Notes: a model not told the origin generated them from the sequence alone. Positions 19,770 through 64,000 are shown, counted from the stretch's first letter. The stretch: 64,000 nucleotides of DNA from an uncultured bacterium (GCA_964511015.1 CAZEDX010000007.1:11337-75336), one strand, 5' to 3'. Program-made: numbers and translations.

Positions 19770-19772
19770 TTC

Positions 19773-44606: not shown

Positions 44607-44872
44607 GGCAACACCTCCGGACGCGTGAACGACCTAGCGTGTATAAGACCAATCGACGGCCCTGTAAAGATACGCTCGCGGTTGGTGCCACTTCGTCGCC
44701 GCGCCCGCGCCGCAGGTCGCTGAGTTGACACCTCCGGCCCCGTCGCCTAGTGTGAGGGCCGAAAAACGGTAGGCGAAATCCGGTTATTGGCGCACGCGAC
44801 CATTGCGGTTGGGCAGGTGTCCGATAGCGCGGACTTCGTAGTTTGTGACGTGTAAATTGCGGCGAGCGTAAT

Positions 44873-46537
44873 TTGTTTCAGCCCCAACTGACCATCGGCC
44901 CGGGCGTCGTCCTGGCCAACAAATACCAAATCATCGAGCGCATCGGCGCCGGCGGCATGGGGGCGGTGTATCGCGCGCGCGAGATCGATTTCCACGTCGA
45001 CCGCAGCGTGGCGATCAAGGTGCTGCCGCCGCAATACGCGGGCGATCCGCGCCTGACCCGCCGCTTCGCCGAAGAGATCAAGATTGCCGCCCAACTCGAT
45101 CACCCACACATTGTGCCGATCTATTTCGTCGGCCGCGAAGCCGACTGCCTGTTCTTCGTGATGAAGCACCTGCGCGGCGAAACACTCAAGGCGCGCGTCG
45201 CCCGTAGCGGCCCGTTGCCGCCGCGCTTCGTTGTGCGCGTGATGGGGCAGATGGCCCGCGCGCTCGATTCGATCCACCGCAAGGGTGCGATCCACCGCGA
45301 TATCAAGTCGGTCAACATCATGATCGACGACGACGGCAACGCTACGCTGATGGACTTCGGCATCGCGAAGATGGAAGGTGGCGCCGAGCTGACCACCACC
45401 GGCGAAGTGCTGGGCACCGCGCCGTACATGGCGCCGGAGCAGTGGCACGGGCAGAAGGATCCGCGGTCCGACATCTACGCCCTGGGCATCGTGATGTATG
45501 AAGCGCTCACCGGCACCCCGCCGTTCGTCAGCGACAAGCTGCCGGAGGTAATGGATGCTCATCTGCGCCAGGCGCCGCAGCCCGTCCGTGACGCGCGGCC
45601 CGAGGTGCCCGAAGCCTTGGCCGAGGTGGTGCATCGGTGCTTGGAAAAGATCCCCGACAAACGCTACGCGACCGCCGGCGATCTGGCCCAGGCGCTGGAT
45701 TTCGTTGATCGCAGTCTGCCGCCCGATCTGCCCGCCGACACGCCGCCGCCCGCGCCGCCGCCGAGCGACGATCCGCTGGCCGCCGCGATTGCGGAATCCG
45801 ACCGGCAGGTCAACGACGGTTACCCCCGCCAGGCGCGCCAGATTCTCAGTGACGCGGTCGGCCGCGCCACGCCGCCGGCCGAGGTGATCGAACGGCTCGA
45901 TAAACTCGCCGCGCTGGCGATGAGCGACGACCAGGCCAAGGTCCGGGCGCAGAAACTGCTCGATCAGCAGAAACCGGCCGAGGCCGAGAAGGTCATTCGT
46001 GACCACTTGCGCGAATATCCGGCCAGCCGCATCGGCAACCTGCTGGCATCGATCTACCAATCGCCGACCGGTTTGCGACAGGCGATCTACGGCGCCGACA
46101 CGCCCACGCGGGTCGCCGCAGAAGCCGCCACGCTCATTGTGCGTCCGCCGCGGCGCATGTGGCCGAAGATCCTGGCCATCGCCATCGCGCTGTTGGTGGT
46201 CGCCGGCGCGATCGGCGGCACATTCGTGTTCTCGTCAGCCACCAGCAAAGGGCTGCTCTATCTGGGCAACCATTTCTACGGCCGGCAGTGGTACGTCTCG
46301 CCGCCGGTCGTCAACGCCGCCGCGGCTTATCATCTGGCGCTGGTCTACAATAACCACAACGACGACGCGAAGAAGGCGTTGGACAACATGGCCGCTCACC
46401 TGTACCGCACCGGACGCGAGTTCCGCAAACGCGGCGACCTGAACAGCGCGGTGCAGTACCTCGGCTGGGCGATTGAGATCAACCGCGATCCGGATTGGGT
46501 GCGCACCTACGAGCAGTACAAACAGGCGCAGAAATAG
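44873..46537 (+). CDS. Hanks-type Ser/Thr protein kinase with TM and C-terminal TPR-like domain
   Basis: IGAGGMGAVY, VAIK, HRDIKSVN, DFG, YMAPE, DIYALG; TM (ILAIAIALLVVAGAIGG). Confidence 0.93.
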   Translation: MFQPQLTIGPGVVLANKYQIIERIGAGGMGAVYRAREIDFHVDRSVAIKVLPPQYAGDPRLTRRFAEEIKIAAQLDHPHIVPIYFVGREADCLFFVMKHLRGETLKARVARSGPLPPRFVVRVMGQMARALDSIHRKGAIHRDIKSVNIMIDDDGNATLMDFGIAKMEGGAELTTTGEVLGTAPYMAPEQWHGQKDPRSDIYALGIVMYEALTGTPPFVSDKLPEVMDAHLRQAPQPVRDARPEVPEALAEVVHRCLEKIPDKRYATAGDLAQALDFVDRSLPPDLPADTPPPAPPPSDDPLAAAIAESDRQVNDGYPRQARQILSDAVGRATPPAEVIERLDKLAALAMSDDQAKVRAQKLLDQQKPAEAEKVIRDHLREYPASRIGNLLASIYQSPTGLRQAIYGADTPTRVAAEAATLIVRPPRRMWPKILAIAIALLVVAGAIGGTFVFSSATSKGLLYLGNHFYGRQWYVSPPVVNAAAAYHLALVYNNHNDDAKKALDNMAAHLYRTGREFRKRGDLNSAVQYLGWAIEINRDPDWVRTYEQYKQAQK

Positions 46538-46591
46538 CGTGGGCGCCGGCGTAGAACCTTTACCAAGTGTCGCGCCGGCAGGGGACAATCG

Positions 46592-47002
46592 ATGAGCCAC
46601 CAACTGCCCGAAACCCCGCTGTGCACGGTCGATATCATCATCCGCTTGGGCGACGGCCGCATCGTGCTGATCGAACGCAAGAACCCGCCGCACGGTTGGG
46701 CGATCCCGGGTGGTTTCATCGACCGCGGCGAGTCGGCCGAGGCCGCCGCCGTGCGCGAGGCGAAGGAAGAAACGAGCCTCGACGTAACGCTGGTGCGGCA
46801 GTTCCACGTCTACTCCGACCCGCACCGCGACGCGCGCTTCCATACGCTGTCGGTGGTTTTCGAGGCGACGGCCACCGGCACGCCGCGCGCCGCCGACGAC
46901 GCCAAGCACCTGGGCGTCTTCACCCCTGAAGAGGCGCTGGCTCTGCCGCTGGCATTCGACCACCGGCAGATTCTGACCGATTTCTTTGCCGGGAAGTTTT
47001 AA
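46592..47002 (+). CDS. NUDIX hydrolase
   Basis: [24 protein letters not shown] Nudix box; LAFDH. Confidence 0.93.
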
Positions 47003-47134
47003 GACCGGCAAACCCGACCCACTATATCTAGCCCGCCCGCCACCCCCCGGATACCACCCCTGTGTCGCTTTCATGGGAATGTCCTAAGCTGGTCATTTCA
47101 TGGAATTTTTCGCTGAATCGCGCCTAAAATTTCC

Positions 47135-47163
47135 TTGACAGGTGGGGTTCGATCCCATATGAT
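47135..47163 (+). promoter_or_regulatory. Sigma70 promoter of the dcw operon
   Basis: TTGACA (47135-40), 17 nt, TATGAT (47158-63). Confidence 0.85.
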
Positions 47164-47199
47164 CCCACACCAGTGGGGATCAGTCCCATCAAGTTCCAT
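47142..47199. promoter_or_regulatory. Probable MraZ operator (TGGG/CCCA boxes)
   Basis: GTGGG 47142, CCCAT 47154, CCCAC 47164, GTGGG 47173, CCCAT 47185, CCAT 47196; roughly 10-bp period overlapping the promoter. Confidence 0.7.
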
Positions 47200-47215
47200 T
47201 GCGCGAGGTCGAGCG

Positions 47216-47671
47216 GTGAGATTCACAGGCCTATTTCCCTTGGCGTTGGACGCGAAAGGACGCACGAGCGTCCCCGCGCCCATTCGCGAGGAATTGGCCA
47301 AAGCCGGCATCGACCGTCTGGTGATCACGACCGATCAGGTGCGCGCTTGCGACTGCCTGATCGTTTATCCCGAGCCGGTGTGGGAGAAGCTGATCCGGAA
47401 GTTTGAGCGTCTTCCGGAGATGGATCCGGACGTGGAAGTGTTCCGGGATACCCACATCGCTCCGGCGCAGCCCCTCACGATGGACGGGCAAGGCCGGGTT
47501 TTGATTCCTCAGTCGTTGCGGGACGAGGTGAAACTGGGGAGCAAGGTTGTCGTCGTGGCGGCCGGCGACACGTTTCGGATTTGGGACGCGGACCTCTGGG
47601 CGGCTGATCGTCAGGACGCCAAGGCGCGTTATGCCGAATCCAAAAAGGCGCTGGCAACGAGACTGAGCTGA
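47216..47671 (+). CDS. mraZ: Transcriptional regulator MraZ
   Basis: Two DxxGR motifs (LDAKGR, MDGQGR), FRIW; GTG start 47216. Confidence 0.95.
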   Translation: MRFTGLFPLALDAKGRTSVPAPIREELAKAGIDRLVITTDQVRACDCLIVYPEPVWEKLIRKFERLPEMDPDVEVFRDTHIAPAQPLTMDGQGRVLIPQSLRDEVKLGSKVVVVAAGDTFRIWDADLWAADRQDAKARYAESKKALATRLS

Positions 47672-48621
47672 TGGCCGCGCACCTGCCGGTGCTGCTGGCC
47701 GAGTCCGTGGACCTTTTGGCGCCCCGTGCGGGCGCCGTGCTGGTCGATGCCACGTGCGGGGCAGGCGGTCACACGATGAGGTTGGCGGACGCCGTCGGCA
47801 GCGACGGCTTGGTGTTGGCGATCGATCAGGATGATGCGGCCCTGGCGATCGCGCGAGAGAAGCTGGCGGGAACTATGAACGTCCGATTCGTCCGAGCCAA
47901 TTTCCGTCATCTCGCAAGCGTGCTGCGCGAGCAGGGTGTGAAGCAGGTGGACGGCATTCTCGCCGACCTGGGCGTCAGCTCGATGCAGCTCGACCAGGCC
48001 GAGCGCGGCTTCTCGTTTCGCGCCGACGGCGAGCTCGACATGCGGATGGATCGACGGGAGGCGCTGACGGCGGCCCGCTGGTTGCGCGAAACCGACGAAG
48101 CCGAACTCGGGCGCGTCTTCCGCGACTACGGCGAAGAACGCCGCTGGCGCGCGGTGGCCCGAGCGGTCGTGCGGCACCGCGAAGCAGGCGGCGCCTTCAC
48201 CGGCGGCGAGTTCCAGCGTCTGGTGCATCGCGCGTTGGGCACGCCCCGCAGCGGCGGTATTGACAGCGCCACGCGCTCGTTCCAGGCCGTGCGCCTGGCC
48301 GTGAACGACGAACTGGGCGCGCTGGAAGAATTTCTCGACGCCGCCATCGACGCGCTCGCCCCGGGCGGGCGCCTGGCGGTGATTTCGTTTCACAGCCTGG
48401 AAGATCGGGCGGTGAAACACCGGCTGCGAGAAGCCGCGACCGGCTGCCGCTGTCCGAAGGACCTGCCGGTCTGCGCTTGCGGCGGCCGACCTGTGCTGCG
48501 CTTGCTCGGCAAGGCCGTCACGCCGAGCGAGGACGAGGTGCGGGCGAACCCGCGCGCCCGTTCGGCCCGGCTGCGCGCGGCGGAAAAACTGGCGGACTCG
48601 AAGGAGGCGAACCATGGCTGA
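47671..48621 (+). CDS. rsmH: 16S rRNA m4C1402 methyltransferase
   Basis: HLPVLL, DATCGAGGH, DLGVSSMQLD...RGFSF, LDMRMD, ISFHSLEDR, NPRARSARLR. Confidence 0.97.
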   Translation: MAAHLPVLLAESVDLLAPRAGAVLVDATCGAGGHTMRLADAVGSDGLVLAIDQDDAALAIAREKLAGTMNVRFVRANFRHLASVLREQGVKQVDGILADLGVSSMQLDQAERGFSFRADGELDMRMDRREALTAARWLRETDEAELGRVFRDYGEERRWRAVARAVVRHREAGGAFTGGEFQRLVHRALGTPRSGGIDSATRSFQAVRLAVNDELGALEEFLDAAIDALAPGGRLAVISFHSLEDRAVKHRLREAATGCRCPKDLPVCACGGRPVLRLLGKAVTPSEDEVRANPRARSARLRAAEKLADSKEANHG

Positions 48622-48994
48622 GGCGTTTCGCGAAACCCCGTTTGAACGCCGGCCTGATTCCCTGCACGCGCCGAAGAAGCGCCGTCGCGCCGGCCGTTCA
48701 CCCGAGGAATGGGTCGACTGGCGCAGCGTGGCGCTCTTCCTGGGGCTGCTGACCCTAACCGTGCTGTATATGCTCGTGCTGACCAACGTGCGGGCTGAGG
48801 TCGTGCAACTGGGCTACGAACTGCACGACCTGCAATACAAAGCCGACTCGCTCGAGGTGGAGGTCGGCAATCTGTCGCGGGCGCGGCAGGGATTGCGTAG
48901 CCCGGAACGTTTGCAACAGTTGGCGACCGACCTGAAGTTGGCCAAGCCGAAGCCGGAACAACTCGTGGTGGTGCATGAACACCCGGCGAATTGA
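48614..48994 (+). CDS. ftsL: Cell division protein FtsL
   Basis: Single TM plus leucine-heptad coiled coil, SPERL; canonical position. Confidence 0.85.
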   Translation: MAEAFRETPFERRPDSLHAPKKRRRAGRSPEEWVDWRSVALFLGLLTLTVLYMLVLTNVRAEVVQLGYELHDLQYKADSLEVEVGNLSRARQGLRSPERLQQLATDLKLAKPKPEQLVVVHEHPAN

Positions 48995-51026
48995 CATCTA
49001 CCGCACGCACCGCCGCCGCCGCTCGCAGGCGCGGGCGGCGCGTCCGGGCCGCGCGTTCCATCTGGAGGAAACCCAGAAGGTGCGCGCCGGCATCGTGCTG
49101 GTGTTCTTCATTCTGCTGTTCGCCGTATTGTTGTACCGCGCTTTCGACCTGACCATTCTCAAGCACGACCGCCTGGTGGCGATGGCCGATCGCATGCACG
49201 ACATCTCGATCGAGTTGACCCAGCCGCGTGGCGAGATCATCGACCGAAACGGCGTGCCGCTGGCGGTGCGCACCATGGCCGAGTCGGTGTTCGCCGATCC
49301 GAAAAAGCTCGAAGACGTCGACCAGGCGGTGAAGCTGTTGTCGTCGGCGTTGTCGCTCGACCCGGAGATGCTGCACCAAAAGCTGGCCGACAAGACGCGG
49401 CGTTTCGTGTGGCTTAAGCGCAAGATTTCGGTGCAGGAATCGGCCGCGCTGCCGGCCAAATTGCCGCCCGGTCTCGGCCGCGTCAACGAATCGGCGCGGC
49501 AGTACCCTTACGGCCGCATGGCCGCCGCGTTGATCGGTTTCGCCGACATCGACACGGTCGGGCTGGAAGGCCTCGAACTGCAGTACGACGACGTCCTGGC
49601 CGGCCAGGCCGGCAAGATGATCGGCCAGCGCGACGCGCACCGGCGAATTTTCTTCCCCGACGGCGTGCAGGTGCGCGGCTTCGAACCGGGCGGCACGCTG
49701 CGGCTGACGCTCGACGCTCACATTCAGTGGTATGCTGAAAACGCGCTCGACGCGACGATGGCCGAGTTCAAACCGAAGGGCGCCTGGGCCATCGTGATGG
49801 ACGTGCAGACCGGCGAGATTCTGGCCATCGCCAACCGGCCGACTTACGACCCCAGCAATCCGTCGAAGTACCCGCCGGAAAACCGGCAGAACCGGGCGTT
49901 GATCAACCGCTACGAGCCCGGTTCCACCATGAAGCCGGTGACCATGGCGATGGGCCTGGAAGAGGGCAAGGTCGACCTCAACGAAAAGATCTACTGCGAA
50001 AGTGGCACTTGGCATCTCTATGGCTCGGTGATCCAGGACGCGCACGGCCACGGCTGGCTGACCCCGTCACAGATCATTCAGGTCAGCTCCAACATCGGCT
50101 CTGCGAAAATCGCCATGCGCCTGGGCCGCGAGAAGGTATGGGGTTGGCTGAGCAACTTCGGCTTTTCGCACCCCAGCGGCATCGATCTGCCCGGCGAAGC
50201 CAGTGGCCAGATGCTGCACTGGTCGCGCTGGTACCCAATCGCCGTGGCGACCCACGCTTACGGCCATGGCTTCTCGGTCACCGCGTTGCAGATGCTTTGT
50301 GCCATCTCCTGCCTGGGTAACCACGGCAACCTGATGAGGCCCTATGTTGTGGCCGAAACACTCGATGCCTCGGGCCGGGTGATCACCCGCAACTACCCGC
50401 AGATCCGCGGCCGCATTGTCAGCGAAAAGACGGCGCAGACCGTGGTCGACATGATGAAGCTGGTCACGCAGCAGGGCGGTACCGCCCGCCGTGCCGCGCT
50501 CGACGGTTTCGAAATCGCGGGCAAGACCGGCACCGCCTACAAGGTGAACGGGCAGACCCGCCGCTATGACAAGAGCCGGCTGGTAAGCAGCTTCGTCGGG
50601 CTGGCGCCGGGCTACGACCCGCAGCTCGGCATCATTGTCGTGGTCGACGAGCCGAGCGGACACGCCTACGGCGGCACCTGCGCGGCGCCGGCGTTCCGCG
50701 AGATCGCCGAGAACGCCCTGCGCTACCGCGGCATCTACGGCCGTCAGGGAGCCGAGACACAGCCGACGCCGCCGCGCCCACCGGTGCTGGTGAAGCGCGG
50801 GCCGGCGCCGAGCGCCACGCCCGCGCCGGAAATGCGTGCCGCGGCTGAAGGGCAGACGCCCAACTTCCTGGGCCTGACCATGCGCCGCGCCGTCCGTCTG
50901 GCGATCGAACAAGGCATCGAAATCCGCACCGTCGGCAGCGGGGTGGCGGTCGGGCAGAATCCGCCGCCGCACGAATCGTTGCCGGCGAACAAAGTGGTCA
51001 CCGTGCAGTTCGGACCGTCGAGCTGA
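48975..51026 (+). CDS. ftsI: Septal transpeptidase PBP3 with C-terminal PASTA-like domain
   Basis: RGEIIDRNG, EPGSTMK (SxxK), SSN, GKTGT; C-terminal PNFLGLT...G.G.AV.Q.P. Confidence 0.95.
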   Translation: MNTRRIDIYRTHRRRRSQARAARPGRAFHLEETQKVRAGIVLVFFILLFAVLLYRAFDLTILKHDRLVAMADRMHDISIELTQPRGEIIDRNGVPLAVRTMAESVFADPKKLEDVDQAVKLLSSALSLDPEMLHQKLADKTRRFVWLKRKISVQESAALPAKLPPGLGRVNESARQYPYGRMAAALIGFADIDTVGLEGLELQYDDVLAGQAGKMIGQRDAHRRIFFPDGVQVRGFEPGGTLRLTLDAHIQWYAENALDATMAEFKPKGAWAIVMDVQTGEILAIANRPTYDPSNPSKYPPENRQNRALINRYEPGSTMKPVTMAMGLEEGKVDLNEKIYCESGTWHLYGSVIQDAHGHGWLTPSQIIQVSSNIGSAKIAMRLGREKVWGWLSNFGFSHPSGIDLPGEASGQMLHWSRWYPIAVATHAYGHGFSVTALQMLCAISCLGNHGNLMRPYVVAETLDASGRVITRNYPQIRGRIVSEKTAQTVVDMMKLVTQQGGTARRAALDGFEIAGKTGTAYKVNGQTRRYDKSRLVSSFVGLAPGYDPQLGIIVVVDEPSGHAYGGTCAAPAFREIAENALRYRGIYGRQGAETQPTPPRPPVLVKRGPAPSATPAPEMRAAAEGQTPNFLGLTMRRAVRLAIEQGIEIRTVGSGVAVGQNPPPHESLPANKVVTVQFGPSS

Positions 51027-51040
51027 GTGAAGGAACCCGA

Positions 51041-52555
51041 ATGCGACTAAGCGCCCTTATCGCCGATCTGCCCTGGACTACCGTCGACCGCGATGCCGAG
51101 GTGGCGCGCGCGGTGGTCGATTCGCGCCGCGTGCAGCCGGGCGACCTGTTCGTCGCTATCCGCGGGCAGGAAATCGATGGGGCGAAGTTCATCCCCGCGG
51201 CGGTTGCGGCCGGGGCCGCGGCGATCGCGGTGGAAGGCGATGTGCCCAAACCCGGCGTGCCCGTGGTGCGCGTGGCCGACGCCCGGCGCTTCGCGGCCCT
51301 GGCGGCGCACCGGCTGGCCGGCGACCCGACCGCCGGCATGACCGTGATCGGCATCACCGGCACCAGCGGCAAGACCACCGTTACCTATCTGCTGGAAGCG
51401 ATCTTCAAGGCCCAGGGCCGGAAGGTTGGCGTGATCGGCACGGTCAACTACCGCTACAACGGCACCGTCGTGCAGGCCAAGTACACCACGCCCGAGGCGG
51501 CGGACTTGGTCGCCATTCTGCTCGAGATGAAAGACGCGGGCGTGGATACCGTGGTGATGGAGGTGTCCAGCCACGCGTTGCAGTTGCAGCGCGTCGTCGG
51601 CTGCCACTTCGACGCCGGGGTCTTCACCAACCTCTCGCGCGACCACCTTGACTTCCACGCCGGCCTCGACGCCTACCTGGCGGCGAAGATGCGGCTGTTC
51701 AACGAAATCCTGCCTGCCTCGGTGCGGTACAAGCCGGCCGTTTTTGCGGCGATCAACGTCGACGACCCGGTGGCCGCGCAGATCATCGCCGCCACGCCGG
51801 TGCCGCGCATTCTGTACGGCGACGGCGACACGGTGAGCTGGCGCGAGGTGAACTGCGACTTCAGCGGTTTGCGCGGCCGCCTGCGCTACGGCGATGTCGA
51901 GTTCGACGTGACCTGTCCGCTGCTCGGCGATTTCCAGATCTACAACGTGCTGGCCGCGGTCGCGGTGGCCCACGGCCTGCGTGTGCCGCCGGCGGTGGCG
52001 GCGGCCGGACTGGCCGTCTGCGGGCGCGTGCCCGGGCGGCTGGACGCGGTCGGCGAACAGGAATTCCTGGTGCTGGTCGACTACGCGCACAAGCCCGACG
52101 CGCTGGACAACGCGCTGGCCACATTGCGGCGCCTGGCGCGGGGCCGTGTCATCACCGTCTTCGGTTGCGGCGGCGACCGCGACCAGGGCAAGCGCCCGTT
52201 GATGGGCCGAGCCGCGGCGGCGCGATCGGATCTGACCATCGTCACCAGCGACAATCCGCGCACCGAAGACCCGCGCGCGATTATCAACATGATCCTGCCC
52301 GGGGTGCGGACCGCGGGCCTGCCGGAAATCGCGCCGGACCGGGCGGCGGCCTGGAACGGCGAGCCTGCGTTTGTGGTCGAACCGGACCGGGCGCGCGCGA
52401 TCCAATTGGCGGTGCGCGTGGCTCGCGCCGGCGACATCGTGCTGCTGGCGGGCAAAGGGCACGAAGACTACATGATCATCGGCCGTGAACGCATCCATTT
52501 CGACGACCGCGAGGTCGCCGCGGCGGCGCTGGCTGAACGCGCGGGAGAGAAGTGA
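51041..52555 (+). CDS. murE: UDP-MurNAc-tripeptide ligase (meso-DAP type)
   Basis: GITGTSGKTT, MEVSSHAL, TNLSRDHLD, DYAHKPD, DNPR, GKGHE. Confidence 0.97.
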   Translation: MRLSALIADLPWTTVDRDAEVARAVVDSRRVQPGDLFVAIRGQEIDGAKFIPAAVAAGAAAIAVEGDVPKPGVPVVRVADARRFAALAAHRLAGDPTAGMTVIGITGTSGKTTVTYLLEAIFKAQGRKVGVIGTVNYRYNGTVVQAKYTTPEAADLVAILLEMKDAGVDTVVMEVSSHALQLQRVVGCHFDAGVFTNLSRDHLDFHAGLDAYLAAKMRLFNEILPASVRYKPAVFAAINVDDPVAAQIIAATPVPRILYGDGDTVSWREVNCDFSGLRGRLRYGDVEFDVTCPLLGDFQIYNVLAAVAVAHGLRVPPAVAAAGLAVCGRVPGRLDAVGEQEFLVLVDYAHKPDALDNALATLRRLARGRVITVFGCGGDRDQGKRPLMGRAAAARSDLTIVTSDNPRTEDPRAIINMILPGVRTAGLPEIAPDRAAAWNGEPAFVVEPDRARAIQLAVRVARAGDIVLLAGKGHEDYMIIGRERIHFDDREVAAAALAERAGEK

Positions 52556-53958
52556 TGCACGATCTGTATACCGCCCGGAATCTGCAGGCGGCGCTCGGCG
52601 CGACACTCGTGCGGGGCGATGCCAACCGCACCTTCGCCGGCATTTCCACCGACACCCGCACCATTCGGCCGCGCGACTGTTTCGTGGCGCTAATCGGTCC
52701 GAACTTCAACGGCCACCACTTTCTGGCCGCGGCGGTCGAGAAAGACGCCGGCGGGCTGGTGGTCAGCGAAGACACGCCCACGCCGGGCGGCGACGAGGTG
52801 GTGGTACTGCGCGTGCCCGACACGCTGCAGGCGTTGGGCGACCTGGCGCGCTGGACGCTCGCGCAGCGCCACGTGCCGGTCATCGCCATCACCGGGTCGA
52901 CCGGCAAGACGACGACCAAGGAAATGCTTTCGGCCATCATGGAAATGCATCTGCCCGGGCGGGTGCTGCGCAATGAAGGCAACCTCAACAACTTGATCGG
53001 CCTGCCGCAGACCGTTTTCCAGCTCACCGCGAAGCACCAGGTGGCGGTGCTCGAAATGGGCATGTCGATGCGGGGCGAGATCCGGCGTCTGGCCGAGATC
53101 GCCCGGCCGCACATCGGCGTGGTGACCAACGTCAGCGCCGTGCACCTCGAACACCTCAAGACCATCGGCGCGGTGGCCGAGGCCAAGCGCGAACTGCTCG
53201 AGGATTTCGGCGCGCAGCACATCGCCGTGCTTAACGCCGACGACGAACGCGTCGCTCGCTTCGGCGAAGGACGCCCGTTTCGCTGCCTGTACTTTTCGGC
53301 CGAGCCGGGCAAGGCGGCCGATATCCGCGCCGGGCGGGTGCGCATGAAGGGCTTCGAGGGCATCGAGGTCGAGCTGGCCGTCGGCGGCGAGACGGTGCCG
53401 GTCACGCTGTCGTGCTTTGGCCGGCACAACATCATGAACGCGCTGGCTGCGGCCGGCGCCGCGTACGCCTTCGGCGTGCCGTTAGCCACGATCGCGCGCG
53501 GGCTCGAGGCCTTCCGGCCGGCGGCGATGCGCAGCCGCGTGCTGCACATCTTCGGCGTTACGGTGATCGACGACACTTACAACGCCAACCCGCGCAGCAT
53601 GGATGCGGCCCTGTCCGCCCTGGCCGAACTGGCCGGGCAGGGGCGCAAGATCGCCGTGCTGGGCGATATGTTCGAGCTGGGCGACGAATCCGCCGCCGCG
53701 CACCGGCGCCTCGGCCGGCACGCGGCGAAGATCGGGCTGGACCGCCTGATTCTGTTGGGCGAGCAGGCGCCGCTGGTCGCTGCGGGTGCGCGCGAGGAGC
53801 TGATGCCGGAAGAGCGGATCACGCTGGCCGCCGACGCCGCGCTGATCGTTGAGGATCTGCGCGAAAGCTCGCGCCGGGGCGACGTCATTCTGGTCAAGGG
53901 CAGCCGCGGCATGCGCATGGAACGCGTGGTGCGCGGGTTGAAAGGAGAAACGATCTGA
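52552..53958 (+). CDS. murF: UDP-MurNAc-pentapeptide ligase
   Basis: TGSTGKTTTK, GNLNNLIGLP, EMGM, DDTYNANP, LGDMFELG, VKGSRG. Confidence 0.97.
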   Translation: MMHDLYTARNLQAALGATLVRGDANRTFAGISTDTRTIRPRDCFVALIGPNFNGHHFLAAAVEKDAGGLVVSEDTPTPGGDEVVVLRVPDTLQALGDLARWTLAQRHVPVIAITGSTGKTTTKEMLSAIMEMHLPGRVLRNEGNLNNLIGLPQTVFQLTAKHQVAVLEMGMSMRGEIRRLAEIARPHIGVVTNVSAVHLEHLKTIGAVAEAKRELLEDFGAQHIAVLNADDERVARFGEGRPFRCLYFSAEPGKAADIRAGRVRMKGFEGIEVELAVGGETVPVTLSCFGRHNIMNALAAAGAAYAFGVPLATIARGLEAFRPAAMRSRVLHIFGVTVIDDTYNANPRSMDAALSALAELAGQGRKIAVLGDMFELGDESAAAHRRLGRHAAKIGLDRLILLGEQAPLVAAGAREELMPEERITLAADAALIVEDLRESSRRGDVILVKGSRGMRMERVVRGLKGETI

Positions 53959-55289
53959 TGTTGCTGACCGACCGCAAAGTGCTGGTGGTGGGCCTCGGAC
54001 GTAGCGGCCGCGCCGTGGTGCGCGTGGCCCGCGATCTGGGTGCTCGCGTCGCGGTCAGCGATAAAGCGAAGCGCGAAGATCTAGCGGAGGTGTTACGCGA
54101 CCTGGGGCCGGCGGTCGATCAGGTCGAGACCGGCGGACATTCCCCCGCCCTGTTCCGCTGGGCCGATTTGATCGTCGTCAGCCCCGGGGTTCCTCTGGCC
54201 GACCCGGTCTTTGCCATCGCGCGCGAGGCTGGCGCGGAAATCATTGGCGAAGTCGAGTTCGCGTTCCGCTATCTCGATTGTCCGGTGCTCGGCATCACCG
54301 GCACCAACGGCAAGTCCACCACGACAGCGTTGCTGGGCGCGATCATGCAGGCCAGCGGCAAGAAGGTATTCGTCGGCGGCAACCTGGGCACGCCGTTGAT
54401 CGAGGCGGTGGAGAACCGTGTGGAGTACGACTTCGCGGTGGTGGAGCTTTCGAGCTTCCAACTTGAAGGCATCCATCGCCTGCGTGCTACCGTCGCCGCG
54501 CTGCTCAACCTGACGCCCGACCACCTGAATCGCTACGCCGATTTCGACGCGTACGTCGCGGCCAAGTGCCGCATCTTCCGCAATCAACTGCCGTCCGACG
54601 CCGCGGTACTCAACGCCGGCGACGCCAAGGTCATGGCCCGCGCCGCCGAGGTGCGTTCGCGCCTGTTCACCTTCGGCCGCGCCGGCGGCAACGCCTGGAT
54701 CGAAGGCTCGACGCTGCGCTTGGAAAGCGACGAGTTCCACGACGCGATCGACATTGCCGGCTACCAACTGCCCGGCGCGCACAACCGCGCCAACCTCGAG
54801 GCGGCCGCGTTGATGGCCCGCCTGGCCGGCGCCGACGCCGCCGCCATCGCCCTGGCCGCTTCGACCTTTCCCGGTCTCGAACACCGCCTGGAGATCCTCG
54901 GCGAGCGCGACGGGGTGCTGTACATCAACGATTCCAAATCGACCACCGAAGACTCGGTGCTGACCGCGGTGGCGGCGATGAATCGGCCGGTGGTGCTGGT
55001 GCTCGGCGGCCGCGACAAGGGCGCCGATTGGGAAGCGCTCGACGAGGCGCTGGCCGGCCGCGTGCGCGCGGTGGTGGCCTACGGCGAGGCCGGCGACGTC
55101 ATCGCACGGCACCTGGTGCACACGCCGACCCGCTTGATGCCGCCGTTTGCCGCCGCGTTGGACGAAGCGGCGCGCTTGGCCCGCCCGGGGGACGTGGTGC
55201 TGCTCTCGCCGGGCTGCACCAGCTTTGACCAGTTCAAGAATTTCGAGGAACGCGGCGCCGCGATGCGCGCGTGGGTGAGGGAACGCTGA
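53958..55289 (+). CDS. murD: UDP-MurNAc-L-Ala:D-Glu ligase
   Basis: [56 protein letters not shown]. Confidence 0.97.
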
Positions 55290-56497
55290 TGGTCGAGCGG
55301 ACACGCCAGCATGGCTTCTCGTTCGACCGGCCGTTGCTGTTCCTGTTGCTGGTCATCATCAGCATCGGGCTGGTGATGGTCAGCAGCGCCAGCTTCCCGC
55401 TGCACGAGAACCCCTACCACTACTTCACGCGCCAACTGGTCTTCGTCGGCATCGGCCTGGTGCTGATGTTCTTCATCGGCAGCCGCGACATCCACCGCCT
55501 GAATTCGACTCCATTGGTCGTCACGCTGCTGGCTGTCAGTGGCGTGCTGCTGGCGCTGTGCTTCGTGCCGGGCATCGCCGCGCCGGCCAACGGTGCGCGC
55601 CGTTGGCTGCAAATCGGGCCGATTTCGGGCCAACCGTCGGAAATCGCCAAAGGCGCGGCTCTGCTGTTCTTCGCCCATTTCCTGGCTCGCAAGGGCGAGG
55701 ATGTGCGCGACTTCTGGCGCGGCGTGTTGCCGGTCACCCTGGCGGCTCTGGTAATCATCGGTGGCATCATCATCGAACCCGACCTCGGTGGCAGCACGAT
55801 GGTCGGTCTGTTGATGATGGTCATGTTGTTTCTCGCCGGCGCACGGCTGCGGGTGTTAGGCTTGTACGCGCTAGGGGGGCTGACCGGCTTCGTGGCGCTG
55901 ATGCTGTCCAACCCCTACCAGCTTCGCCGGCTGATGTCGTTCCTGCACCCGTGGGACGACCCGACCGGCACCAGCTACCAGATCAAAAATTCACTGATCG
56001 CGCTGGGCCGCGGCGGCTTGACCGGTGTCGGCGTCGGCAACGGCATGCAGAAGCTGTTCTTCCTGCCCGAAATCCACAACGACTTCATTCTGGCCAACCT
56101 CGGCGAGGAGCTCGGCCTGCTCGGCCTGTGGTTGGTTTTCATTCTGTTCGGCCTGTTGGTTTTCCGGTCGATGCGTTTGGCGATGCGCTGCCGCGAACCG
56201 TTTGCGCGGTTGATCGGCGCGGGCGCCGCGGCGCTGCTCGGGCTGCAGGTCGTGGTCAATGCCGCGGTGGTCATGTGCCTGGCCCCGACCAAGGGCCTGG
56301 CGATTCCGTTTCTGTCTTACGGCGGCAGTTCGGCAGTGCTCAATTTCAGCCTGATCGGCCTGATTCTGGCGGTCGGGCGGGCCGGCGGGCCGAAGACGGC
56401 GCCCGAAGCCGGGGTCGCCTGGCATCCGTTGCGCGACCGCCGCGTGGCCGGTCTGGAGGAACCATGTTCGGACGTACGGAACACATCCATTTCGTAG
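55289..56497 (+). CDS. ftsW: SEDS peptidoglycan polymerase FtsW
   Basis: GARRW...QPSE.AK, EPDLG, YQ...S..A.G.GG..G.G.G.G.QK..FLPE.HNDFI...GEE.G, PTKG..IPF.SYGGS. Confidence 0.96.
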
Positions 56498-57846
56498 GCA
56501 TCGGCGGCATCGGCATGAGCGGCATCGCCGAGGTGCTGCTCAATCTGGGCTACCGCGTCTCCGGTTCGGACATGAAGGACAGCGAGATCACCAAGAACCT
56601 GGAGCGCCTGGGCGCGACCGTGTTCGTCGGCCACACCGGGTCGAACATCGCCGGGGCCGACGTGGTGGTGACCAGCAGCGCGATCAAGCCGGACAACCCC
56701 GAGATCACCGCGGCGCGCGCCGCCGCCGTGCCGGTCATTCCGCGGGCCGAGATGCTGGCCGAACTGATGCGCATGAAGTACGGTGTGGCGGTGGCCGGCA
56801 CGCACGGCAAGACGACGACCACCAGCCTGATCGCCACGGTGCTCAACGCGGCCGGGTTCGATCCGACGGTCGTGGTCGGCGGGCGGGTCGACGCGCTCGG
56901 CTCGAACGCCAAGCTCGGCCGCAGCCAGTATTTCGTGGCTGAGGCCGACGAATCCGACGGCAGCTTCCTGCTACTCACCCCGACCATCGCCGTGGTGACC
57001 AACATCGACCTGGAGCACCTCGACTACTACAGCGGCATGGAGCAGCTCAAGCGCACGTTCCTCACCTTCCTGAACAAGGTGCCGTTCTACGGGCTGTGCG
57101 TGATGTGCCATGACGACGAAAACGTGCGTGCGTTGCTGCCGCAGATCCGCAAACGCCTGGTGACCTATGGTCTGACGCAGTCGGCTGAGTTCTTCGCTAG
57201 CGACATCGTGCAGGAGCAGTTCGGCACGCGCTTCATCGCCCACCACACGCAGGCCGGTCGCCTGGGCGAGATCCGCCTGCAGTTGCCCGGCCGGCACATG
57301 GTGCAAAACGCCCTGGCGGCGTTGGCCGTCGCGATGGAACTGGGCGTGAAGTTCGAAGTCGCCGCCGCGGCGATGGCGCAATTCGGCGGCGTGCGGCGCC
57401 GGTTCCAACGCGTCGGCGAAGTCAACAACATTCTGGTCATCGACGACTACGGCCACCACCCGACCGAGATCAAGGCGACGCTGGCCGCGGCGCGCGGCGG
57501 CTTCCAGCGCCGGCTGGTGGTCGCCTTCCAGCCGCACCGGTACACCCGCACGCGCGACCTGTTCGACATGTTCTTGTCGGCGTTTAACGACACCGACAAG
57601 TTGATCATCACCGACATCTACGCGGCCAGCGAAACGCCGCTGGAAGGCGTGACGGCGAAGAAGCTGGTCGACGGCATCCGGGCCATCGGCCATTGCGACG
57701 TCGAATACGTGACCAGCAACGACCAGGTGCTCGAGCGCTTGGTAGAGATCGCGCGGCCGGGCGACCTGATCATGACCCTGGGCGCCGGCGACCTGAACAA
57801 GGTGGCCGTGAGACTGGTGGAACGGTTGAGTGGAGGCCGGGCGTGA
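56464..57846 (+). CDS. murC: UDP-MurNAc:L-Ala ligase
   Basis: ATG 56464 with GGAGGA SD; [41 protein letters not shown]. Confidence 0.97.
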
Positions 57847-58778
57847 CCACACAGCGCATCCAGGAACGACTGCGGCAGATCTTCGGCGATCGCTGCGAGT
57901 TCGGCGTGCCGATGGCGCCGTTGACCACTTGGCAGGTCGGCGGCCCGGCCGACTGCCTGGTGCGTCCGGTAGCCGCCGACGAAGTCGCCGAGGTGATGCG
58001 CCTGTGCGCCGAATTCCAGTTGCCGGTGCGCGTGGTCGGCAACGGTTCGAACTTGCTGGTGCTCGACGGCGGCCTGCGTGGCGTGACGATGCTGATCCGC
58101 CAGGGCTTCGACCGCTTCGAGCCGAAATTCAGCGGCGAGAACAACGTCGAGCTGGCGGTCGGCGCGGCGCTGTCGATGGCCCGCGCGGTCGACCAGTGCG
58201 CGGCGGCCGGCATCGCCGGCCTGGAATTCCTGGCCGGTATCCCCGGCTCGATCGGCGGCGGCGTGCGCATGAACGCCGGCACACGCGAAGGCGACATTTC
58301 GCGGGTGCTGACTGAGATCGAACTGGTCGACGCCGACGGCAAGGTGCGCCGGGTGCCGCGCGACAAGTTGGTCTATCGCTACCGCGGCCTGGTGTACGAC
58401 GGGCCGTTCGTGATCACCGAAGTGCGCCTGGCGTTGCGGCGCGGCGACGCGGCGCAGATCGCCGCCGCGGTGCAGAAAATCATCGCCTGGCGGCGCGGCC
58501 GACACCCGTACGAATTGCCCAGCGCCGGTTCGACCTTCAAGAACCCGGAAGGGCAGTTCGCCGGCGAATTGATCGAACGTGCCGGCCTCAAGGGCACGCG
58601 CATCGGCGGCGCGCAGGTCAGCGAAAAGCACGCCAATTTCCTGGTCAATCTCGGCCACGCCACGGCGGCAGATGTGTTGGCGCTGATTGAACGTGTGCGG
58701 CAGGTGGTCTTCGAAAAAACCGGCGTGATGCTCGAGCCGGAAGTCAAGATTTGGGGGGAAAAAGATGTGGCGGAATAG
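57843..58778 (+). CDS. murB: UDP-N-acetylenolpyruvoylglucosamine reductase
   Basis: [44 protein letters not shown]. Confidence 0.96.
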
Positions 58779-59715
58779 GCGCGTCGGCGTGTTGTTCGGC
58801 GGCCCGAGCGCCGAACGGGAAGTCTCGTTGAAGACCGGGCAGGCGGTGTGCGGCGCGCTGCGGCGCAAAGGCTACGACGTGGTGGAACTCGATCTGGACG
58901 ACCAGACCGCAGCCCGTTTGCGCGCCGAGCGGATCGACGTGGTCTACAATGCCCTGCACGGCAAATGGGGCGAGGACGGCTGTGTGCAGGGGTTGCTTGA
59001 GATCCTGCGCATCCCGTACACCGGCCCGGGTGTGACCTCCTCGGCCGTCGGCATGGACAAGGTCATCAGCAACCGGCTGTTCCAGGCGGCGGGCTTGCCG
59101 GTGCCGCCGAACCGCGTGATCGACCGGACTGACTGCGTGGCGTTCGTGAATGCGGACTCGCCCTTCGGCTACCCGCTGGTGATCAAGCCGGCGACCGAAG
59201 GCAGCAGCGTCGGCGTGACCGTGGTGCCGCAGGCGGCGCAGTTGGCCGCGGCGCTGGACAAGGCTTTCGCCGCCGACCAACGCGTGATCGCCGAGCAGTA
59301 TTTGCCCGGGCGCGAGATTCAGGTGGCGGTGCTGGGCAGGCAGGCGATCGGTATCGTCGAGGTGAAGCCGAAGCCGCAGCCCGGCGAGGAGATCACCTTT
59401 TACGACTACGCGCACAAGTACACCAAGGGCATGACCGACTACTTCACCCGGCCGGCCGGGCTCGACGAAGCGCTGGTGCGCGCGGCGGAAGAGATGGCCG
59501 TTCGCGCCTGCCAAGCGATTCTGGCCGAGGGCGTTTGCCGGGTGGATCTGATTCTCGACGGCCAGAACCGTTACTGGGTGTTGGAAGTCAACACGCTGCC
59601 CGGCCTGACGGAGTTGTCACTGGTGCCGATGATCGCGCGTGACTGGCGCGGTCTGGCCTTCGACGACCTGGTAGAAATGGTGCTCAACACGGCGCGGCTG
59701 AAGATCGGCGCGTAA
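58765..59715 (+). CDS. ddl: D-alanine--D-alanine ligase
   Basis: GGPSAEREVSL, LHGKWGEDG, KPATEGSS, YDY..KY, EVNTLPG. Confidence 0.96.
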   Translation: MWRNRRVGVLFGGPSAEREVSLKTGQAVCGALRRKGYDVVELDLDDQTAARLRAERIDVVYNALHGKWGEDGCVQGLLEILRIPYTGPGVTSSAVGMDKVISNRLFQAAGLPVPPNRVIDRTDCVAFVNADSPFGYPLVIKPATEGSSVGVTVVPQAAQLAAALDKAFAADQRVIAEQYLPGREIQVAVLGRQAIGIVEVKPKPQPGEEITFYDYAHKYTKGMTDYFTRPAGLDEALVRAAEEMAVRACQAILAEGVCRVDLILDGQNRYWVLEVNTLPGLTELSLVPMIARDWRGLAFDDLVEMVLNTARLKIGA

Positions 59716-59728
59716 GGACGGAACGCGA

Positions 59729-60595
59729 ATGATCCGGACCAAGAGCGAAAACGGACGGCGAAAGGCGGGGCGGCTGGCCCGGCACAACCGGCCGCGCGGC
59801 CTGATCAAGGCCCGCGTGGTGGCGTTCGCCTGTTCGCTCCAACCGCGGGTGCTGGGCCTGTGGCGGCTGTGGCCGGCGGCGATCTTTCTGGCGCTGGTGG
59901 TGCTACTGCACCAGAACTTCACCCGCGCCGATCAGTTCCGGCTGCGCACGATCGACGTGCCCGAATGCCGCCACCTGACCAAGGCGGCGTTGCTCAATTA
60001 CCTGCATTTCCGGCCCGGCCAGAACATCTTCACCGTCGATGTGCGCGGCGCGGCCGACCGCATCGCCGAGCATCCGTGGGTCAAGACGGCGTCGGTGCGG
60101 CGCCAACTGCCCGACCTGGTTGTGGTCGAGCTGACCGAACGTGAGCCGGTGGCTCTGCTGCGGATGGACGCGCTCTACCTGGTCGACGAAGACGGCGAGC
60201 CGTTCAAGAAGGTCGAGCCGACCGATCCGGTGGATCTGCCGCTGTTGACCGGCTTCGACGCCACCGCGTTTCAGCGCGGCGGCCGGGCGGCCCAACGGGC
60301 GGCCATGCTGATCCGCGAAGGGGCGCGGCTGATTCAGGCTGGCCAGCGCGTTGGCCGTCTCGACCCGCAAGACATCAGCGAGGTGCGCTACGAGGCCAGC
60401 GGCGGGTTTACCTTCATCACCGCCGAAACCGGCGCCCAGATTCGTCTGGGTTTCGGCGACTACGACAAGAAACTCCGGCGCTTCGCCGTCGTTTCGCAGC
60501 AGATCGGCGCGCGGATGGCGCAGGTGCGCCTGGTTGACGTCAGCATTCCCGGCCGCGTGGTGGTGCGCGGCCTGCGCCAGGAGGCGGGGGCATGA
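59729..60595 (+). CDS. ftsQ: Cell division protein FtsQ/DivIB
   Basis: Basic N-terminus, TM, POTRA (HPWVK.ASVRR.LP..V), ERE P.A; canonical position. Confidence 0.9.
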   Translation: MIRTKSENGRRKAGRLARHNRPRGLIKARVVAFACSLQPRVLGLWRLWPAAIFLALVVLLHQNFTRADQFRLRTIDVPECRHLTKAALLNYLHFRPGQNIFTVDVRGAADRIAEHPWVKTASVRRQLPDLVVVELTEREPVALLRMDALYLVDEDGEPFKKVEPTDPVDLPLLTGFDATAFQRGGRAAQRAAMLIREGARLIQAGQRVGRLDPQDISEVRYEASGGFTFITAETGAQIRLGFGDYDKKLRRFAVVSQQIGARMAQVRLVDVSIPGRVVVRGLRQEAGA

Positions 60596-61821
60596 AGAAG
60601 CCGAATCCGCTGGTCGTCGGTCTGGATATCGGAACCACCAAGGTGTGCGCCGTGGTCGCGCAGCGCACCACCGCGGGCATGGACATCACCGGCCTGGGCA
60701 CCTCGCCCAGCGAAGGCATGCGCAAGGGCGTGGTGGTCGACATCGAGTCGACGGTCAAGTCGATCACCGCCGCGGTGGAAGAGGCCGAGGCGATGGCCAA
60801 GTGCGAGATCGGCTCGGTGTTCGTCGGCATCGCCAGCGGCTACATCAAGGGCTTCAACAGCCAGGGCATGATCGCGTTGCGCGACAAGGACGTTACCGCC
60901 GAAGACGTCGCGCGCGTCATCGACGCCGCCAAGGCCGTGGCCATTCCGACCGACCGCGAAGTGCTTCACGTGCTGCCGCGCGAATTCATTCTCGACGGGC
61001 AGGGCGGGATCAAAGACCCGATCGGCATGCAGGGCGTGCGTTTGGAAGTGATGTGCCACATCGTCACCGGCCAGGCCGCCAGCGCCAGCAATCTGATTCG
61101 TTGTTGCCACCAGGCCGGCCTGGACGTCGACAACCTGATTCTCGAGCCGCTGGCCAGCGCCGAGGCCGTGCTCACTGCCGAGGAACGCGAACTGGGCGTG
61201 GCGCTGGTCGACGTCGGCGGCGGCACGACCGACATGGTGGTCTACGTCGACGACGCGGTTGCGCACACCGCCGTGCTCGGCCTGGGCGGCATGCAGATCA
61301 CCAACGACATCGCCCACGGCATGCAGACCACCGCGGCCAGCGCCGAGTGGTTGAAGAAACGCTACGGCCACTGCGTGCCGGGCAAGATCGTGCCGGGCGA
61401 GGAAATCGAAGTCGAATCGCTGGGCGACCGCGAGCCGCGGCTGATGGACCGGCGGATGCTCAGCGAGATCACCGAAGCGCGCGTGCGCGAGATTCTCGAT
61501 CTGATCCACGAAGAGATCATGCGGCAGGAACTCGACGTGCACATCCCGGCCGGCATCGTGCTGACCGGCGGCACGGCGGAACTGCGCGGCATCGAGGAGT
61601 TGGCCGAGCGCATCTTCGGCTGCCCGGTGCGGGTGGGGCGGTCGCGGCACATCGGCGGCCTGGTCGATGTCGTCGCCAGCCCGATGTACGCGACGGGCGT
61701 GGGCCTGGTGCTATTGGGCGCGCGCGAGCTCGCCGCCGGCCGGTTGCCGGTGGGCGATCGCGGCGTGTTCGACAAAGTGAAAGATACGATGTCCGGATGG
61801 ATGAAGAAATTGTGGTCCTGA
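60592..61821 (+). CDS. ftsA: Cell division protein FtsA
   Basis: [28 protein letters not shown]-terminal amphipathic helix ([10 protein letters not shown]). Confidence 0.97.
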
Positions 61822-61864
61822 GATTGTGCGGCACGGGAGCTTGGGGCTCCGAAGGAGGGAAAGG

Positions 61865-63091
61865 ATGTCTCTGAAGTTCAAGATCGTAGAGCCGGATAGC
61901 GGCGCCAAGTTGAAGGTCGTCGGCATCGGCGGCGGCGGCGGCAACGCCGTCAACACGATGATCGAGGCTGGCCTCCAGGGCGTGGAATTCATCGCCTGCA
62001 ACACCGACAAGCAGGCGCTGGCGTCCAACCTGGCGGCGGTCAAGGTGCAGCTCGGCATCGGCTTGGGGGCCGGCGGCAAACCGGAGGTCGGCGCGCGGTC
62101 GGCCGAGGAGAGCCGCGAGAAGCTGCGCGAGGTGCTCGACGGCGCCGACATGGTGTTCGTCACCGCGGGCATGGGCGGCGGCACCGGCACCGGCGGCGCG
62201 CCGGTCGTGGCCAAGATCGCCAAGGAAATGGGTGCGCTGACGGTCGGCGTAGTGACCAAGCCGTTCCATTTCGAAGGCAAGCGGCGCATGCGGCAGGCCG
62301 AGGAAGGCATCGCCAAGCTGCGCGAGCACGTGGATACGATCATCATCATTCCGAACCAGAAATTGCTGGCCGTGGCCGGCACCGACACCACGCTGGTCGA
62401 CGCCTTCCGGCGCGCCGACGACGTGTTGCTCAAGGGCGTGAAGGCGATCTCCGACCTGGTGGTGAACCAGGGCGCGGTGAACCTCGACTTCGCTGACGTC
62501 GAATCGGTGATGGAAGCGACCGAGTCCACCGGCGAACTGGCGTTGATGGGCACCGGCGAAGCGGCCGGCGCCGACCGCGCGGTCAAGGCCGCGGCGGAGG
62601 CGATCAGCTGCCCGTTGCTGGAAAACGTCAGCATCGAAGGCGCGCGCGGGGTGTTGATCAACATCACCGGCGGCGCCGATCTCAAGCTGTGCGAAGTCAC
62701 CGCGGCGGCCGATCTGATCAAGAAGGCGACCGCCGAAGATGCGGCGATCTTCTGGGGCCAGGTCATCGACCCGACGCTCACCGACGTACTGCGCGTGACG
62801 GTCATCGCCACCGGTTTCGACGAGGCGCGCGAACACGCGCAGACGCCGGTGGTCGAACGGCAGAAGGTGACCTACCTCAACCAGGCCGTCGAGCCGGAGG
62901 CAAAAGAGACGCGTGCGCCGCGCCAACGCGCCGAGCGGGTCGAGGAAGCGCCGATTACCGTCGAGACCGATCCGAAATTGAACCAGCCGCGGCGCAAGGT
63001 GGCGGTGCACACCTGGCGGTCGAGCCGGTTGCAGGCCGACGACGACGCCTACGACATTCCGGCGTTTCTGCGGTATCGCAAACCGGATTGA
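61865..63091 (+). CDS. ftsZ: Cell division GTPase FtsZ
   Basis: [32 protein letters not shown]-terminal DIPAFLR; ATG 61865 with SD. Confidence 0.98.
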
Positions 63092-63140
63092 GCAGGAGCA
63101 GTTCGTGAGCCCCCGCCTTTGCCCAGATAGAACACAGGCT

Positions 63141-63270
63141 TCGCCGCCGCACGCGGCGAGGATCACTCAGGGATCATCCTCGGGAGTTCGTGGTCCTTCC
63201 CCCCGGCCGGGACCCCTCTACCCCTCTGTGCCGCACAGCCCGGCCTAACATCACGAACTCCGACTCGGAT
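63141..63270. ncRNA. Candidate structured RNA in the ftsZ 3' region
   Basis: Hairpin 63141-59; rod GGAGTTCGTG/CACGAACTCC enclosing GGCCGGG/CCCGGCC and CTGTG/CACAG with C-rich loops; no credible ORF. Confidence 0.45.
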
Positions 63271-63273
63271 TCA

Positions 63274-63306
63274 GGCCGCCGAACACCCCTTCGGCGGCCC
63301 TTTTTT
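63274..63306 (+). terminator. Rho-independent terminator closing the dcw/ftsZ transcript
   Basis: GGCCGCCGAA-CACCCC-TTCGGCGGCC followed by CTTTTTT. Confidence 0.9.
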
Positions 63307-63448
63307 GTTCTTAGACTCTGGCGTTTTGGCTTTGGGCTGTAGTTTGGAACAGGCATTTTTGGTTGAACGTTGCCCGTTCTCCGATAACCAAGGCCCGGAA
63401 TCCGGATCCCGGTATACGAAAAACTCCGACACGGGACTCCAACAACAC

Positions 63449-64000
63449 TTAGCAGCCACAGCCGCCGGTGTCGTCATCATCATCGCCGGTTCCCTGGTCG
63501 TCGTCGGCATCGTCGTCGGCGGCGGTGTCGTCATCGGCGGCGTCGTCGTCGGCCGGCGGGGCGTCTTCGGGTTTGGCGGCGTTGGAGATGTAAGACATCA
63601 GCCCGACGTCGTCGAACGAACGCAGGGCGAAGGAGGCCGCGCCGGGCGCCGTGACCTTCACCACCACTTCCAGACCGCCCTCGATGGGTGTGACGCTTTC
63701 CAGCGATGTCGCGCCGGACCAACCGCTCGCGCTGCGCAAGTCGACGCCGCTATCCGTGGTGTAGCGCAGATCGTAGGACAGCGCCGTGCCGCAATCGTGG
63801 TCGTCGCCGGGCGCGGTGAAGTGCAGTTCGAAGACGTCCGGATCATCGGTCTTGTAGGCGACCAGATCGCGCACCATGCGCGGCGGCAGCGTGTCGGCGC
63901 CGTAGAAGCCGCTGTTGTAGTTGTCGTGGTGGAACCGACCCCATTCGCGCGTGCTCTCGCCACGGCGGCAAGCCTTGCCACGCGTGTACCAGGCGAACAG
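63449..64000 (-). CDS. C-terminal part of a probable secreted/surface protein (FN3-like domain, Asp-rich linker, terminal GGCGC); 5' end off window
   Basis: Frame open from 64000: ...WGRFHHDNYNSG...FTAPGDDHDCGTALSYDLRY...DDDAADDDTAADDDADDDQGTGDDDDDTGGCGC-TAA. Confidence 0.85.
   Translation of the reverse strand: MFAWYTRGKACRRGESTREWGRFHHDNYNSGFYGADTLPPRMVRDLVAYKTDDPDVFELHFTAPGDDHDCGTALSYDLRYTTDSGVDLRSASGWSGATSLESVTPIEGGLEVVVKVTAPGAASFALRSFDDVGLMSYISNAAKPEDAPPADDDAADDDTAADDDADDDQGTGDDDDDTGGCGC

Follow-up and report, generated by a model that had tools for sequence, protein, structure and literature searches.

The product of MurF is converted by MraY into lipid I and then by MurG into lipid II, which is used by FtsW and FtsI. 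In Escherichia coli the genes for these proteins belong to the dcw cluster, which has the order mraZ-rsmH-ftsL-ftsI-murE-murF-mraY-murD-ftsW-murG-murC-ddlB-ftsQ-ftsA-ftsZ, and mraY is one of the genes that most consistently stay within it. Lineage-specific loss of single dcw genes from the cluster, with retention of the gene elsewhere, has been documented, and mraY is not among the genes listed as lost (PMC8871954).

A baseline for the position of mraY was obtained by scanning JGI metagenomes with a MraY alignment, which yielded at least 80 loci, those listed all being canonical. Among the matches listed, mraY lies downstream of murF inside a dcw cluster in every one of the 62 evaluable metagenomic loci, and murD is the next gene after mraY in 55 of 58. 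Measured against these counts, the arrangement described in the present work, in which murF is followed directly by murD throughout a clade of uncultured bacteria, is unusual.

The locus lies in a 64-kb stretch of DNA from an uncultured bacterium (GCA_964511015.1 CAZEDX010000007.1:11337-75336), the whole of which is referred to here as the window. On its + strand, at 47216-63091, the window carries the operon mraZ-rsmH-ftsL-ftsI-murE-murF-murD-ftsW-murC-murB-ddl-ftsQ-ftsA-ftsZ. This operon shares with the E. coli cluster all of its other genes, their order and strand, the position of the promoter before mraZ and the tight overlaps between genes, but it lacks mraY and murG, it has murB between murC and ddl, a placement found in many non-enteric bacteria, and its FtsI carries a PASTA domain. 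The operon is a real, conserved and uncommon gene-order variant of the known dcw cluster.

Gene content and organization of the operon

All 14 genes of the operon were assigned to families with Pfam, and the products of six of them (MurE, MurF, MurD, FtsW, MurC and MurB) also score above the curated cut-offs of NCBIfam models, which are equivalog models except in the case of MurF, where the model is at the subfamily level. The 5' end is formed by mraZ (47216-47671; PF02381) and rsmH, or mraW (47671-48621; PF01795, E = 2e-104), joined by a TGATG overlap and followed by ftsL (48614-48994), which is recognized by a weak match to PF04999 and by its conserved position, and by ftsI (48975-51026), which encodes a class B PBP. 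The genes murE (51041-52555, meso-DAP type; NF001124, 504 bits against a cut-off of 476) and murF (52555-53958, 467 aa from an ATG as in the L090 gene call; TIGR01143, 423 bits against 288.6) are adjacent and co-oriented and overlap by TGATG, as do murD (53958-55289, 443 aa; TIGR01087, 405 bits against 212) and the adjacent ftsW (55289-56497, 402 aa), which encodes a SEDS polymerase (TIGR02614, 367 bits against 337.5). The 3' end consists of murC (56464-57846, 460 aa; TIGR01082, 567 bits against 335), murB (57843-58778; NF010480, 332 bits against 259), ddl (58765-59715; PF07478 and PF01820), ftsQ (59729-60595; PF08478 and PF03799), ftsA (60592-61821; PF14450 and PF02491) and ftsZ (61865-63091, 408 aa from an ATG, L083 gene call; PF00091 and PF12327). 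The canonical order is thus interrupted at two places only: there is no mraY between murF and murD, and no murG between ftsW and murC.

The PASTA domain, which is usually a trait of Gram-positive PBP2x/PknB-type proteins, occupies the C-terminal residues 628-680 of FtsI, and it is also called in three of the related contigs described below (L090, L091 and L094) and in one outgroup (L084).

Neighbouring genes overlap at 10 of the 13 junctions of the operon. Matches to promoter and terminator consensus sequences, which are all that the scans for these elements report, include a sigma-70-like site on the + strand at 47135-47163 (TTGACA-17-TATGAT, 11 of 12 matches), about 50 nt upstream of mraZ, and a terminator-like hairpin on the same strand at 63274-63299 (a 10-bp stem with 8 GC pairs and a T-run), which is the strongest found and lies just after ftsZ. 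The single sigma-70-like site in 46500-64000 is a count not above chance, and it is the position of the site that suggests a role for it. The overlapping junctions, the promoter-like site before mraZ and the terminator-like hairpin after ftsZ together fit a single translationally coupled operon. Delimited mechanically, the mraZ reading frame would begin with the TTG at 47135, but this TTG falls in the -35 hexamer of the promoter-like site, and translation most likely begins at the GTG at 47216, which gives the protein of 151 aa that is called in L090.

Immediately upstream of mraZ, at 44873-47002, the window encodes a Ser/Thr protein kinase and a NUDIX hydrolase. Their position is kept in L090, L093 and L094, and the pair is found upstream of the operon in all of the relatives' contigs L091-L095 that reach far enough, so that the two genes may have a regulatory link to the operon.

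Absence of mraY and murG from the window

The initial annotation had reported that mraY is missing from an otherwise canonical dcw operon and that murG has been lost along with it, and both observations are upheld by homology searches of the whole window. The E. coli dcw proteins, taken from NC_000913, were compared by tblastn with all six frames of the 64 kb, in which neither MraY (best E = 1.5) nor MurG (best E = 0.09) has a match. The remaining E. coli proteins, with the exception of FtsL, matched their orthologues at E values from 5e-9 to 9e-123; FtsL is short and reached a best E value of only 1.4, and the ftsL of the window was identified by Pfam instead. In Pfam scans of essentially all large ORFs of the window, none contained PF00953 or the GT28 domains PF03033/PF04101, so that no mraY or murG is present in the approximately 47 kb upstream of the cluster or in the approximately 0.9 kb downstream of it. 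The genes on either side of the first gap were both identified by Pfam and NCBIfam, and at the second gap ftsW overlaps murC directly. None of the genes flanking the gaps has gained an MraY or GT28 domain or extra length, the products being of standard size (MurF 467, MurD 443, FtsW 402 and MurC 460 aa).

The remaining large ORFs of the window are housekeeping and signalling genes by Pfam, including dnaK-grpE-dnaJ, proS, ispG, pyrF, histidine kinases, sigma-54 activators and radical SAM enzymes. Beside grpE-dnaK-dnaJ, a pair of adjacent genes encodes small proteins with FHA domains (7589-8513, + strand; L082 gene calls). At 18867-24228 a SAM methyltransferase gene precedes a row of three radical SAM genes, of which two encode B12-binding domains, and the group resembles a small cassette for modification or biosynthesis. 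A 1423-aa hybrid sensor kinase is encoded at 26634-30905 on the - strand; it combines at least four PAS and two GAF domains with HisKA/HATPase and a receiver domain. The ORFs at 24234-26531 and 42114-43625 (-) encode large multi-pass membrane proteins that match no Pfam or NCBIfam family. Both were considered as a divergent MraY and rejected, neither giving a PF00953 or NCBIfam signal; the impression given by their sequences is of a product that may be membrane-anchored and spermidine-synthase-like in the first case and one that may resemble a GT-C-type glycosyltransferase in the second.

Conservation of the arrangement in related bacteria

A contig found by exact-protein look-ups (L090; JAHZTK010009578, GCA_020047475.1) proved to be a second assembly of the same organism, collinear with the window over 43958-58701 (14.7 kb) at 99.2% nucleotide identity, and its murF/murD and ftsW/murC junctions are the same as those of the window. 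More distant relatives were reached in two ways. A MurF scan of species-representative genomes returned three unclassified TPA MAGs (L002, L003 and L005) with 73% MurF identity and the order murF-murD, and in the two whose contigs reach far enough (L002 and L005) ftsW and murC are adjacent as well. A protein search with MurD delimited a clade at 56-81% identity, after which identity drops to 50% or less (Anaeromyxobacter, Vulgatibacter and Desulfuromonas). A 245-kb ENA contig (L091), two Logan contigs (L092 and L095), a 192-kb JGI contig (L093) and GCA_012517325.1, which is labelled ‘Myxococcales bacterium’ (L094), all have the cluster with neither mraY nor murG in it. The contigs and genomes of the clade include GCA_012517325.1 (JAAYVF01), the MAGs that contain DAIMDW01, DAIPLW01 and DAINPV01, ERZ24794679 NODE_23 (245 kb) and JGI 3300082323 Ga0675941_000462 (192 kb). 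Among the eight contigs of relatives with the same junction, MurD identity to the window goes down to 57%, and in the flanks of up to 10 kb around the clusters of these relatives mraY and murG are likewise absent.

The possibility that misassembly had joined murF to murD, which had been raised together with the first description of the locus, is not borne out, because the junction recurs in nine other contigs from different assemblies, namely the independent assembly of the same organism and the eight contigs of relatives. It is true that MAG contigs can be chimeric, and this prior is all that speaks for an artefact of assembly or binning, but ten contigs, drawn from assemblies of NCBI, ENA, Logan and JGI, have an identical gene order, two of them being as long as 192 kb and 245 kb, and the junction sequences vary (TGATG or ATGA) as real divergence would make them vary, which leaves such an artefact with a negligible probability.

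The nearest outgroups (L004, L006, L084 and L087) have the canonical order murF-mraY-murD-ftsW-murG-murC. Together with the absence of both genes throughout the clade, this implies that the trait is ancestral to a family- or order-level lineage. In one of these outgroups, L006, murG is split into two tblastn segments (14880-15161 and 15217-15930), as is murC (15966-16820 and 16822-17310); we take these splits to be probable frameshift-type assembly errors and not pseudogenes.

Anatomy of the excision

At the first gap the window reads ...GGGTTGAAAGGAGAAACGATCTGATGTTG..., where the stop codon TGA of murF (53956-53958) and the ATG of murD (53958-53960) share one nucleotide. The direct joining of murF to murD by a TGATG overlap can therefore be read at 53956-53960, as had been described. 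The junction as a whole (53940-53960, + strand) begins with GAAAGGAG at 53940-53947, the codons of MurF LKGE, which act as a Shine-Dalgarno sequence and are followed by the TGATG. In the outgroup L087 the C-terminus of MurF is encoded by ...GGGCTGAAGGGCGAGACGCTCTGATGCTGTACCAC, and the ATG CTG TAC CAC found there is the start of MraY (MLYH); this same end of MurF, which in the window reads ...GGGTTGAAAGGAGAAACGATCTGATGTTGCTGACC, leads there into MurD (MLLT). The C-terminal codons of MurF and the TGATG or ATGA that follows them are common to the clade and the outgroups, ATGA taking the place of TGATG at murF/murD in other clade members, and it is only the downstream ORF that differs.

Since the same MurF end and TGATG precede mraY in the outgroups, murD has inherited the translation start site of mraY. 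The initial annotation had credited murD with an SD of its own, AAAGGAG; this sequence is present, but it is not a new element belonging to murD, because it consists of codons of the conserved MurF GLKGE and also precedes mraY in the outgroups, and it was rejected as a new regulatory feature on these grounds. The TGATG is not a special feature of this junction either, as it is the default junction of the operon, found at 4 of the 13 junctions in the window (mraZ/rsmH, murE/murF, murF/murD and murD/ftsW). At the second gap, which is the position of murG in the outgroups, ftsW and murC overlap by 34 nt (56464-56497, + strand), and the overlap has this length in most clade members. The reading frames of mraY and murG have been removed exactly from the operon: the outgroups share the MurF C-terminus and the TGATG before mraY and have the canonical order, so the excision is exact at the level of the ORF and ancestral to the clade.

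Integrity of the lipid II pathway

The remaining genes of the operon are intact and under purifying selection. FtsI keeps its SxxK, SxN and KTG motifs, the Asp that corresponds to E. coli D297 is conserved in FtsW, and the P-loops are kept in all four Mur ligases. From mraZ to murB, the codon differences between the window and L090 are synonymous in 55 cases and non-synonymous in 13, and across the clade the operon proteins are 44-82% identical. The cut-offs passed, the catalytic motifs kept and the purifying selection together imply that lipid II must still be made. The enzymes that make UDP-MurNAc-pentapeptide and those that polymerise and cross-link lipid II are all maintained, and the activities of MraY and MurG are therefore required.

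These data also bear on the reading that the pathway is decaying, with the lineage losing peptidoglycan and the remaining genes being relics. All that speaks for such decay is that both lipid-linked steps are missing. Against it, the twelve remaining genes for the cell wall and division all have their full length in at least five divergent lineages, the curated cut-offs are passed, the catalytic motifs are kept and synonymous change is in strong excess; these results effectively refute decay, and we give it next to no credence.

Location of mraY and murG

A cell that still makes and uses lipid II most likely encodes canonical mraY and murG elsewhere on its chromosome. Three explanations had been put forward for the gap, namely relocation, an MraY-MurG fusion and non-orthologous replacement, and relocation is the most plausible of the three, its support, which is indirect, being the intact and selected genes that produce and consume lipid II. 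It is highly probable that mraY and murG underwent an ancient, exact removal from the operon and have been retained elsewhere, the part of this reading that concerns relocation following from the logic of the pathway.

Database searches for the relocated genes used the proteins of the outgroups as queries. Among the best 120 database homologues of the MraY of L004 there is no candidate that can be tied to the clade, and the same holds for the best 120 homologues of the outgroup MurG. Within the best 120 MraY matches, identity levels off at about 65% over many ‘deltaproteobacterial’ lineages, so that the clade cannot be picked out by rank, and none of the matches is a MraY with a Myxococcota name, which suggests that the clade's own MraY may rank below them. 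Among the best 120 MurG matches, identity is 45% or less once past the clade of L004 itself. The genomic contexts of four candidates were looked up: P0012 and P0013, the best MraY candidates on long contigs, and P0147, a candidate MurG, lie in canonical clusters and were rejected as the relocated genes of the clade, and P0146, a stand-alone murG, was rejected because it belongs to a different lineage, grouping with Enhygromyxa salina.

The same matches weigh on the idea that the two genes left the operon and now encode one fused MraY-MurG protein elsewhere. In its favour, the natural Mur fusions on record include chimeras of MraY and MurG (PMC10214165), and the two genes are jointly absent in every clade member and jointly present in every outgroup; against this, among the matches listed, a GT28 domain occurs in 0 of the 120 closest MraY homologues and PF00953 in 0 of the 120 closest MurG homologues, the genes flanking the gaps in the operon have neither extra length nor an extra domain, and the only stand-alone murG context seen (L088, described below) has no adjacent mraY. 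A fusion is very improbable.

The explanation by replacement holds that canonical MraY, MurG or both are truly lost, and that lipid I and lipid II are made by enzymes that are not orthologous to them or are only distant paralogues, for instance a GT28 paralogue resembling MurG2 or a transferase of the WecA type. We know of no functional substitute for MraY, which counts against it, and the window contains nothing like a GT4-family phosphotransferase or a GT28 protein. In its favour, no mraY or murG of the clade was found among the matches listed, and MurG2, an alternative lipid II synthase able to replace MurG, occurs in actinobacteria (PMC8092295). A gene that leaves the cluster and is kept elsewhere is, on the other hand, a documented pattern (PMC8871954), and replacement has in our judgement only a slight chance of being correct. 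There is an equally slight chance that an order-level lineage with the Myxococcales label has the cytoplasmic MurA-F-type steps, FtsW and FtsI with no canonical MraY and/or MurG anywhere in the genome, its lipid-linked precursors being made by unrelated or highly divergent enzymes.

The course of events can be set out as follows. The lineage is uncultured, and one of its members carries the NCBI label ‘Myxococcales bacterium’; in the common ancestor of the lineage, the mraY and murG frames were removed exactly from a canonical mraZ...ftsZ operon. The start of murD now occupies the ATG position of mraY in sister lineages, with the Shine-Dalgarno sequence that serves mraY there, and murC has come to overlap the end of ftsW. 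What is left would still be a single, tightly coupled transcription unit, with one promoter-like site ahead of mraZ and one strong terminator-like hairpin behind ftsZ, and canonical mraY and murG are most likely encoded elsewhere on the chromosome. The expression of these two genes would then be uncoupled from that of the operon; that they form a separately regulated unit, as the initial annotation proposed, is speculation.

Discussion

The removal strikes precisely the two membrane-bound steps that yield lipid I and lipid II, and it does so in the whole clade, while the rest of the cluster is kept in one tightly coupled operon. The gap left by mraY and murG is a clean synapomorphy by which this uncultured lineage can be defined and tracked, and it provides a natural experiment on the need for MraY and MurG to be co-transcribed with, and stoichiometrically coupled to, the Mur ligases. 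Pipelines that deduce the loss of a pathway from the content of a gene cluster should take it as a warning. Should the two genes prove to be truly absent from the genome, which is unlikely, the lineage would have a new route to lipid II.

Comparison with known dcw arrangements

Variants in which one gene is missing from the murF-to-murC block were seen in unrelated metagenomic lineages: one (L021) has no murG between ftsW and murC, and in three (L118, L156 and L163) murD is missing from its place after mraY and before ftsW. They resemble the clade in the exactness of the removal, but each concerns a single gene, and mraY is always kept.

A stand-alone murG was observed in L088 (8199-11152), directly downstream of a single gene of 591 aa that is of VanW plus GT1-like type, and the surrounding 10 kb contain no further dcw gene. 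The MurG of L088 groups with that of Enhygromyxa salina (P0146, P0163), and the affiliation of L088 with Myxococcota is through that match. L088 is like the clade in having murG outside any dcw cluster, but it belongs to a different lineage, since there is no Enhygromyxa-type MurD among the best 120 matches of the window's MurD. It is a precedent for the dispersal of murG in Myxococcota.

MurG2 (PMC8092295) and the MraY-MurG chimeras (PMC10214165) are known non-standard encodings of the MurG and MraY steps; none has been identified for the clade, for which they serve as leads only. There is also a likeness in kind to the clusters of PMC8871954, in which the absence of a gene likewise defines a clade, the genes concerned being here mraY and murG.
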